Source: a phage
Direction: 5' to 3' (one strand)
DNA: 1,071 nt
Sequence record: ON036039.1
Below, in pieces: positions 1 through 1,071 of this stretch; positions within the stretch are counted from its first letter, which is position 1, and each line of letters opens with the position of its first letter. The position numbers were made by a program, and so were the translations under genes. The notes under the pieces were generated by a model that did not search any database, had not been told where the DNA came from, and saw nothing but the letters and a program-made list of their open reading frames with translations.

Positions 1-93
1 ATGCGCCAGGAAACCCGCTTTAAATTTAACGCGTATCTGAGCCGCGTGGCGGAACTGAACGGCATTGATGCGGGCGATGTGAGCAAAAAATTT
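1..93 (+). other. Region encoding the N-terminal segment (aa 1-31) that is proteolytically removed during capsid maturation in P2 (gpN to N*)
   Basis: Established knowledge, recalled: P2 gpN is processed to the mature N* form by loss of about 31 N-terminal residues, a cleavage dependent on the scaffold/protease gpO. In this translation aa 1-31 are MRQETRFKFNAYLSRVAELNGIDAGDVSKKF and the predicted mature N-terminus begins TVEPSV at nt 94. The exact cleavage position is from memory and is not derivable from the sequence. Confidence 0.45.
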
Positions 94-1071
94 ACCGTGG
101 AACCGAGCGTGACCCAGACCCTGATGAACACCATGCAGGAAAGCAGCGATTTTCTGACCCGCATTAACATTGTGCCGGTGAGCGAAATGAAAGGCGAAAA
201 AATTGGCATTGGCGTGACCGGCAGCATTGCGAGCACCACCGATACCGCGGGCGGCACCGAACGCCAGCCGAAAGATTTTAGCAAACTGGCGAGCAACAAA
301 TATGAATGCGATCAGATTAACTTTGATTTTTATATTCGCTATAAAACCCTGGATCTGTGGGCGCGCTATCAGGATTTTCAGCTGCGCATTCGCAACGCGA
401 TTATTAAACGCCAGAGCCTGGATTTTATTATGGCGGGCTTTAACGGCGTGAAACGCGCGGAAACCAGCGATCGCAGCAGCAACCCGATGCTGCAGGATGT
501 GGCGGTGGGCTGGCTGCAGAAATATCGCAACGAAGCGCCGGCGCGCGTGATGAGCAAAGTGACCGATGAAGAAGGCCGCACCACCAGCGAAGTGATTCGC
601 GTGGGCAAAGGCGGCGATTATGCGAGCCTGGATGCGCTGGTGATGGATGCGACCAACAACCTGATTGAACCGTGGTATCAGGAAGATCCGGATCTGGTGG
701 TGATTGTGGGCCGCCAGCTGCTGGCGGATAAATATTTTCCGATTGTGAACAAAGAACAGGATAACAGCGAAATGCTGGCGGCGGATGTGATTATTAGCCA
801 GAAACGCATTGGCAACCTGCCGGCGGTGCGCGTGCCGTATTTTCCGGCGGATGCGATGCTGATTACCAAACTGGAAAACCTGAGCATTTATTATATGGAT
901 GATAGCCATCGCCGCGTGATTGAAGAAAACCCGAAACTGGATCGCGTGGAAAACTATGAAAGCATGAACATTGATTATGTGGTGGAAGATTATGCGGCGG
1001 GCTGCCTGGTGGAAAAAATTAAAGTGGGCGATTTTAGCACCCCGGCGAAAGCGACCGCGGAACCGGGCGCG
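1..1071 (+). CDS. N: Major capsid protein, phage P2 gpN family (HK97-fold); 357 sense codons, stop codon not contained in window
   Basis: Seen in sequence: frame 1 is open from ATG at nt 1 to the last base (357 codons, no in-frame stop), whereas every other frame is broken up. Translation begins MRQETRFKFNAYLSRVAELNGIDAGDVSKKFTVEPSVTQTLMNTMQESSDFLTRINIVPV and ends ...YESMNIDYVVEDYAAGCLVEKIKVGDFSTPAKATAEPGA. Established knowledge / recall: this matches the P2 gpN major capsid protein, which I recall as 357 aa, the same length as this ORF. Identity is from memory, not a search. Gene symbol N follows P2 nomenclature. Confidence 0.9.
   Translation, partial: MRQETRFKFNAYLSRVAELNGIDAGDVSKKFTVEPSVTQTLMNTMQESSDFLTRINIVPVSEMKGEKIGIGVTGSIASTTDTAGGTERQPKDFSKLASNKYECDQINFDFYIRYKTLDLWARYQDFQLRIRNAIIKRQSLDFIMAGFNGVKRAETSDRSSNPMLQDVAVGWLQKYRNEAPARVMSKVTDEEGRTTSEVIRVGKGGDYASLDALVMDATNNLIEPWYQEDPDLVVIVGRQLLADKYFPIVNKEQDNSEMLAADVIISQKRIGNLPAVRVPYFPADAMLITKLENLSIYYMDDSHRRVIEENPKLDRVENYESMNIDYVVEDYAAGCLVEKIKVGDFSTPAKATAEPGA

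Follow-up and report, generated by a model that had tools for sequence, protein, structure and literature searches.

The 1071-nt stretch of DNA analysed here from end to end (the window) was made artificially by reverse translation of the phage P2 major capsid protein, gpN, with the codons that are most used across the E. coli genome. We give this reading a probability of about 97%, and a non-native origin in the broader sense, whether the sequence was computed or synthesised, is at least as secure. The decisive test was to back-translate native gpN with a table of the top E. coli K-12 codons, which returned all 1071 bases of the window with 0 differences; from the native P2 gene the window differs by synonymous changes only. 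Both results support the original prediction that the window is a back-translation and not native DNA; that it was produced purely in silico is what we infer from its form.

Codon content and source of the codon table

Codon tabulation showed that the window, which is the entire source, consists of 357 sense codons in frame 1. It begins at ATG and its final triplet, GCG (1069-1071), is still a sense codon, with no internal or terminal stop codon in this frame. A ribosome-binding site, flanks, a tag and cloning sites at the ends are likewise absent from the window. Exactly 20 distinct codons occur in frame 1, one for each of the 20 amino acids: alanine GCG (28), cysteine TGC (2), aspartate GAT (28), glutamate GAA (25), phenylalanine TTT (13), glycine GGC (20), histidine CAT (1), isoleucine ATT (24), lysine AAA (22), leucine CTG (24), methionine ATG (12), asparagine AAC (19), proline CCG (14), glutamine CAG (14), arginine CGC (22), serine AGC (23), threonine ACC (20), valine GTG (28), tryptophan TGG (3) and tyrosine TAT (15). 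This tabulation of 20 codons over 357 positions is identical to the list given in the original prediction, and a check for a second codon found none for any amino acid.

The probability of obtaining one codon per amino acid was about 1e-75 under the codon frequencies of native P2 gene N, about 1e-106 under those of a K-12 sample and about 1e-67 under those of highly expressed E. coli genes (ribosomal-protein, tuf, fus and rpo genes). In 113 natural K-12 ORFs, each 300 codons or longer, the median number of distinct codons was 57 and the minimum 37, the latter in a tufA fragment; tufA/B, the natural ORFs with the strongest bias in the sample, used 37-44. All 16 amino acids with at least 10 occurrences are confined to a single codon in the window, compared with at most two in any natural ORF. 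The single-codon pattern of the window is far beyond chance, and the claim that a complete lack of synonymous variation is effectively impossible in a native gene holds with these probabilities and with the natural minimum of 37 codons.

To identify the codon table, we counted codons in long ORFs from four 50-kb stretches of the K-12 genome (NC_000913.3) that had not been picked for high expression (200 kb, 53,508 codons). The window codon was the commonest genome-wide codon for 18 of 18 degenerate amino acids, with close calls in this table for arginine (CGC 1207, CGT 1178) and isoleucine (ATT 1527, ATC 1419). By our own arithmetic, synonymous codons picked at random would agree with the top codon at all 18 amino acids about once in 3.4e8. 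An earlier 150-kb K-12 sample, rich in ribosomal, tuf and rpo genes, had matched at 14-16 of 18 amino acids, with near-ties for glycine, isoleucine, arginine and valine. Since the match became complete once counting was limited to ordinary stretches, this early mismatch reflects sampling bias and not a different table.

The codons preferred in highly expressed genes were taken from 34 annotated genes (ribosomal proteins, tufA/B, fusA and rpoA/B/C). This set prefers GCT, GAC, TTC, GGT, CAC, ATC, CGT, TCT, GTT and TAC, and it matched the window for only 8 of 18 amino acids; the highly expressed or 'optimal' codon set was rejected as the source on this count. The window follows a ranking by genome-wide frequency, as naive back-translation does by default, rather than a table of translational optimality. 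The prediction that the chosen codons are the most frequent ones of E. coli is correct with this refinement, namely that it applies genome-wide and not to the highly expressed set.

The encoded protein and its natural genes

The translation of the window is 100% identical (357 of 357 residues) to gpN of phage P2 (NC_001895.1 4080-5150) and also 100% identical to gpN of phage PhiD252. Profile searches matched PF05125 'Phage major capsid protein, P2 family' over the full length (E=2e-151, 504 bits, cut-off 27), the NCBIfam equivalog TIGR01551 (315.5 bits, cut-off 219.65) and the major head protein family PHROG 70 (phrog_70, E=7e-177). The entry 'Major capsid protein gpN' of the PDB (7JW1) was matched over residues 1-357 (E=1e-238). 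On these matches the encoded protein is classified as the type member of the P2-family major capsid proteins, with an HK97-like fold assigned by the match to 7JW1; at the protein level there is no difference between the window and this family member. P2 capsids are T=7, and the small capsids formed under the P4 Sid scaffold are T=4.

The biology of gpN is known in detail. The structure of the protein is a canonical HK97 fold in which N-arm, E-loop, P-domain and A-domain are present; gpN assembles together with the scaffold/protease gpO, and maturation removes residues 1-31 (PMC7552001). The P4 Sid protein diverts it into small capsids, and recombinant expression of gpN has been used for making procapsids (PMC7552001). 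gpN is a real, fully characterised textbook protein with a solved structure, and in this respect the window holds what is already known.

Native P2 gene N (L001 1501-2574, equivalent to NC_001895.1 4080-5153) ends with the stop codon TAA and lies between genes O and M; the ATG of M, which encodes the terminase small subunit, is located 3 nt past the TAA of N (TAACCGATG). It encodes its protein with 52 sense codons. Alignment of the window with this gene revealed 83.1% nucleotide identity and 181 mismatches distributed over 159 codons. All 181 of the 181 differences are synonymous, and not one amino acid is changed. As predicted, a perfect protein match is accompanied by a lower identity at the DNA level and the mismatches are found mainly at third codon positions (152/181). 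The remaining 29, at first and second positions, are accounted for by 14 serine swaps from TCN to AGC and one leucine swap from TTG to CTG.

The assembly index lists 5,461 blocks with a protein identical to gpN, and the order gpO-gpN-gpM was normal at all ten loci with this protein that were retrieved. These ten genes and P2 N itself formed a set of 11 natural genes for an identical protein. They use 50-52 codons each and share 97.95-100% nucleotide identity with one another, compared with 83.1-84.2% with the window. In 150 alignment columns all 11 natural genes agree and the window alone deviates. Native P2 N and its alleles in E. coli prophages thus encode the same 357-residue protein as the window, which differs from them in its 20 codons and in lacking the TAA, the gpO and gpM neighbours and a ribosome-binding site. 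As native P2 N at the DNA level the window was rejected, with neither near-100% identity nor the anatomy of a natural gene.

A natural relative from Salmonella phage PHB48 has 76% nucleotide identity, with 81 amino-acid changes and 111 codons that differ only synonymously. Zero amino-acid changes together with 159 synonymous codon swaps is a combination that no evolutionary process gives and that reverse translation does. Relative to P2 N, natural N genes are distributed bimodally: 94 phage records have at least 90% nucleotide identity and the rest at most 77%. Within this phage collection, the window with its 83-84% sits in a gap that is empty of natural N genes.

Codon choice in the native gene was also compared with that of the window. 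Native N favours TTC, TAC, ATC, GAC and GGT, as highly expressed E. coli genes do, whereas the window has TTT, TAT, ATT, GAT and GGC. At phenylalanine, tyrosine, isoleucine, aspartate and glycine the natural capsid gene resembles highly expressed genes more closely than the window does. The GC content at third positions is 0.70 in native N and 0.64 in the window.

Searches for natural DNA that matches the window gave no near-100% hit, which agrees with what had been expected of a back-translation; the maximum was 84.5%. The best identity was 84.3% among 50,697 phage records (megablast and blastn), 84.5% among 5,426 complete E. coli genomes, of which 1,531 carry an N gene or homologue, and 84.3% among 72,556 plasmids (PLSDB). 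Larger collections were scanned with a 60-mer specific to the window (243-302), which has 18 differences to the native sequence. Exact copies of it were absent from IMG/VR, from JGI metagenome contigs and from GTDB genomes (one for each of 185,579 species). The native 60-mer of the same codons served as a positive control and was recovered in three IMG/VR contigs, which validates the exact scan.

Origin of the sequence

In the proposed route, a person or program would have taken the 357-residue gpN and written one fixed codon for each residue, this codon being the one most used across the whole E. coli genome, and the output would begin at the ATG and end with the final sense codon. The window would then be the product of a generic 'most likely codon' routine run in silico and not a sequence designed for an experiment. 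Generic utilities that return most likely codons include Reverse Translate of the Sequence Manipulation Suite and EMBOSS backtranseq with an E. coli table. A sequence translated from a protein record, more than a cloned gene, would be expected to lack a stop codon and flanks, as the window does; these absences and that of design clean-up make a purely computational back-translation very probable, if less certain than the non-native origin as such. No observation speaks against a non-native origin.

The competing explanation with the most in its favour is a physically synthesised 'one amino acid-one codon' gpN gene, made for instance for recombinant capsids or P4 virus-like particles, whose insert sequence entered a database. 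Genes of this design with the commonest genome-wide E. coli codons have been synthesised and expressed (PMC3056764, variant V0). The window is like the V0-type design in its single fixed genome-commonest codon per amino acid and in being rebuilt deterministically from the protein. Recombinant gpN has already been made for procapsids (PMC7552001), and a construct for a C-terminal fusion would likewise be without a stop codon. Unlike an ordered gene, however, the window lacks a stop codon, cloning sites at its ends, a tag, flanks and any sign of design clean-up, and it resembles raw program output. Common restriction sites (PstI, PvuII, SacII and BssHII twice each, and MluI) and three A6 runs are still present. 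The codons come from the genome-wide table and not from the highly expressed one (8/18) that is usual in expression-oriented optimisers, nothing above 84.3% was found in the plasmid collection, and native N already expresses well in E. coli, which leaves little motive for recoding. We consider a synthesised gene unlikely, and the same low weight is given to the window as a real recoded gpN gene in use, for example in an engineered P2/P4 capsid or transducing-particle system. If such a gene physically exists, it would be no more than a routine synthetic gene for a known protein. An expression-oriented codon-optimised gene was rejected separately, with 8 of 18 preferred codons, restriction sites kept and no stop codon or flanks.

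The two other explanations carry much less weight than a synthesised gene. A back-translation from a different table, such as the human default or a table of highly expressed E. coli genes, is very improbable. Enterobacteria share genome-wide preferences, and 20 codons cannot separate E. coli from a close relative; yet the K-12 genome-wide table matches at 18 of 18 amino acids and the highly expressed one at only 8 of 18. A human table would give GCC, CCC, ATC, AAG, GAG, GAC, TTC, TAC and CAC, and all of these codons are absent from the window. The probability that the window is a native capsid gene of P2 type whose codon bias is naturally extreme is practically negligible. All that speaks for this explanation is the high expression of major capsid genes and some bias in their codons. 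Against it stand probabilities of about 1e-67 to 1e-106 under natural E. coli codon frequencies, the 37-44 codons that even tufA/B use and the 50-52 of natural genes for the identical protein. The window codons are moreover not the translationally preferred ones (8/18), the top natural DNA identity is 84.5%, and 0 non-synonymous against 159 synonymous codon changes lies off the natural trend. Codon counts, probabilities, the exact rebuild and the comparison with natural alleles refute a native gene with extreme codon bias. The reading we retain is an artificial reverse translation of P2 gpN with genome-wide E. coli codons.

Nucleotide-level features and use of the sequence

As the exact rebuild showed, the protein fully determines the DNA of the window, which carries no further information. 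It follows that the protein and a 20-entry table account for all nucleotide-level features, among them GC content and codon adaptation, repeats and predicted hairpins, motifs and ORFs in alternative frames; the view that such features are artefacts of these two is sustained by the rebuild with its 0/1071 differences. The features annotated on the window are listed in Table 1.

Table 1. Coordinates of the features annotated on the window
Feature	Position	Strand	Basis or remark
Back-translated coding sequence of phage P2 gpN, 357 aa	1..1071	+	Codon table, protein identity, exact rebuild
N-terminal gpN segment expected to be cut off by the gpO protease in capsid maturation	1..93 (codons 1-31)	+	Protein-level annotation only
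Codon-aligned antisense frame, open across 357 codons; codon-table artefact, not a gene	1..1071	-	0 stops
Direct repeat of 19 nt, 84% identity	274..292 and 1030-1048	+	Peptides DFSKLA and DFSTPA

The antisense frame stays open since CTA, TTA and TCA, the reverse complements of the stop codons, do not occur among the 20 codons; the corresponding antisense frame of native N contains four stops. Its translation in the window uses only 13 residue types, and no PHROG match was found for it. ORF scans that count run-off ORFs could flag this frame as a long antisense ORF. The 19-nt repeat arises because its two peptides are similar and are written with a fixed codon table, and it is not a DNA-level element. 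An Rfam search of the window gave only a chance match (12.5 bits, gathering score 382). The window contains 0 promoter-like sites and three terminator-like sites, a number that is not meaningful against a shuffled expectation of 1.5 +/- 1.4.

The refinements to the original prediction are the genome-wide rather than highly expressed table, the exact rebuild and the recognition that the in silico origin is something we infer. Findings on the window that rest on its nucleotides are to be discarded, whether they concern GC content or GC skew, codon adaptation, repeats, hairpins, motifs that resemble promoters or terminators, or ORFs in antisense or other alternative frames. The sequence is known on both levels, the protein as P2 gpN and the DNA as a standard one-codon reverse translation, and it adds no new biological feature. 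The value of the result lies in data hygiene, as a quality-control flag for a provenance artefact, and not in biology. The window is not to be treated as genomic DNA; only statements at the protein level carry over, and these are already known.
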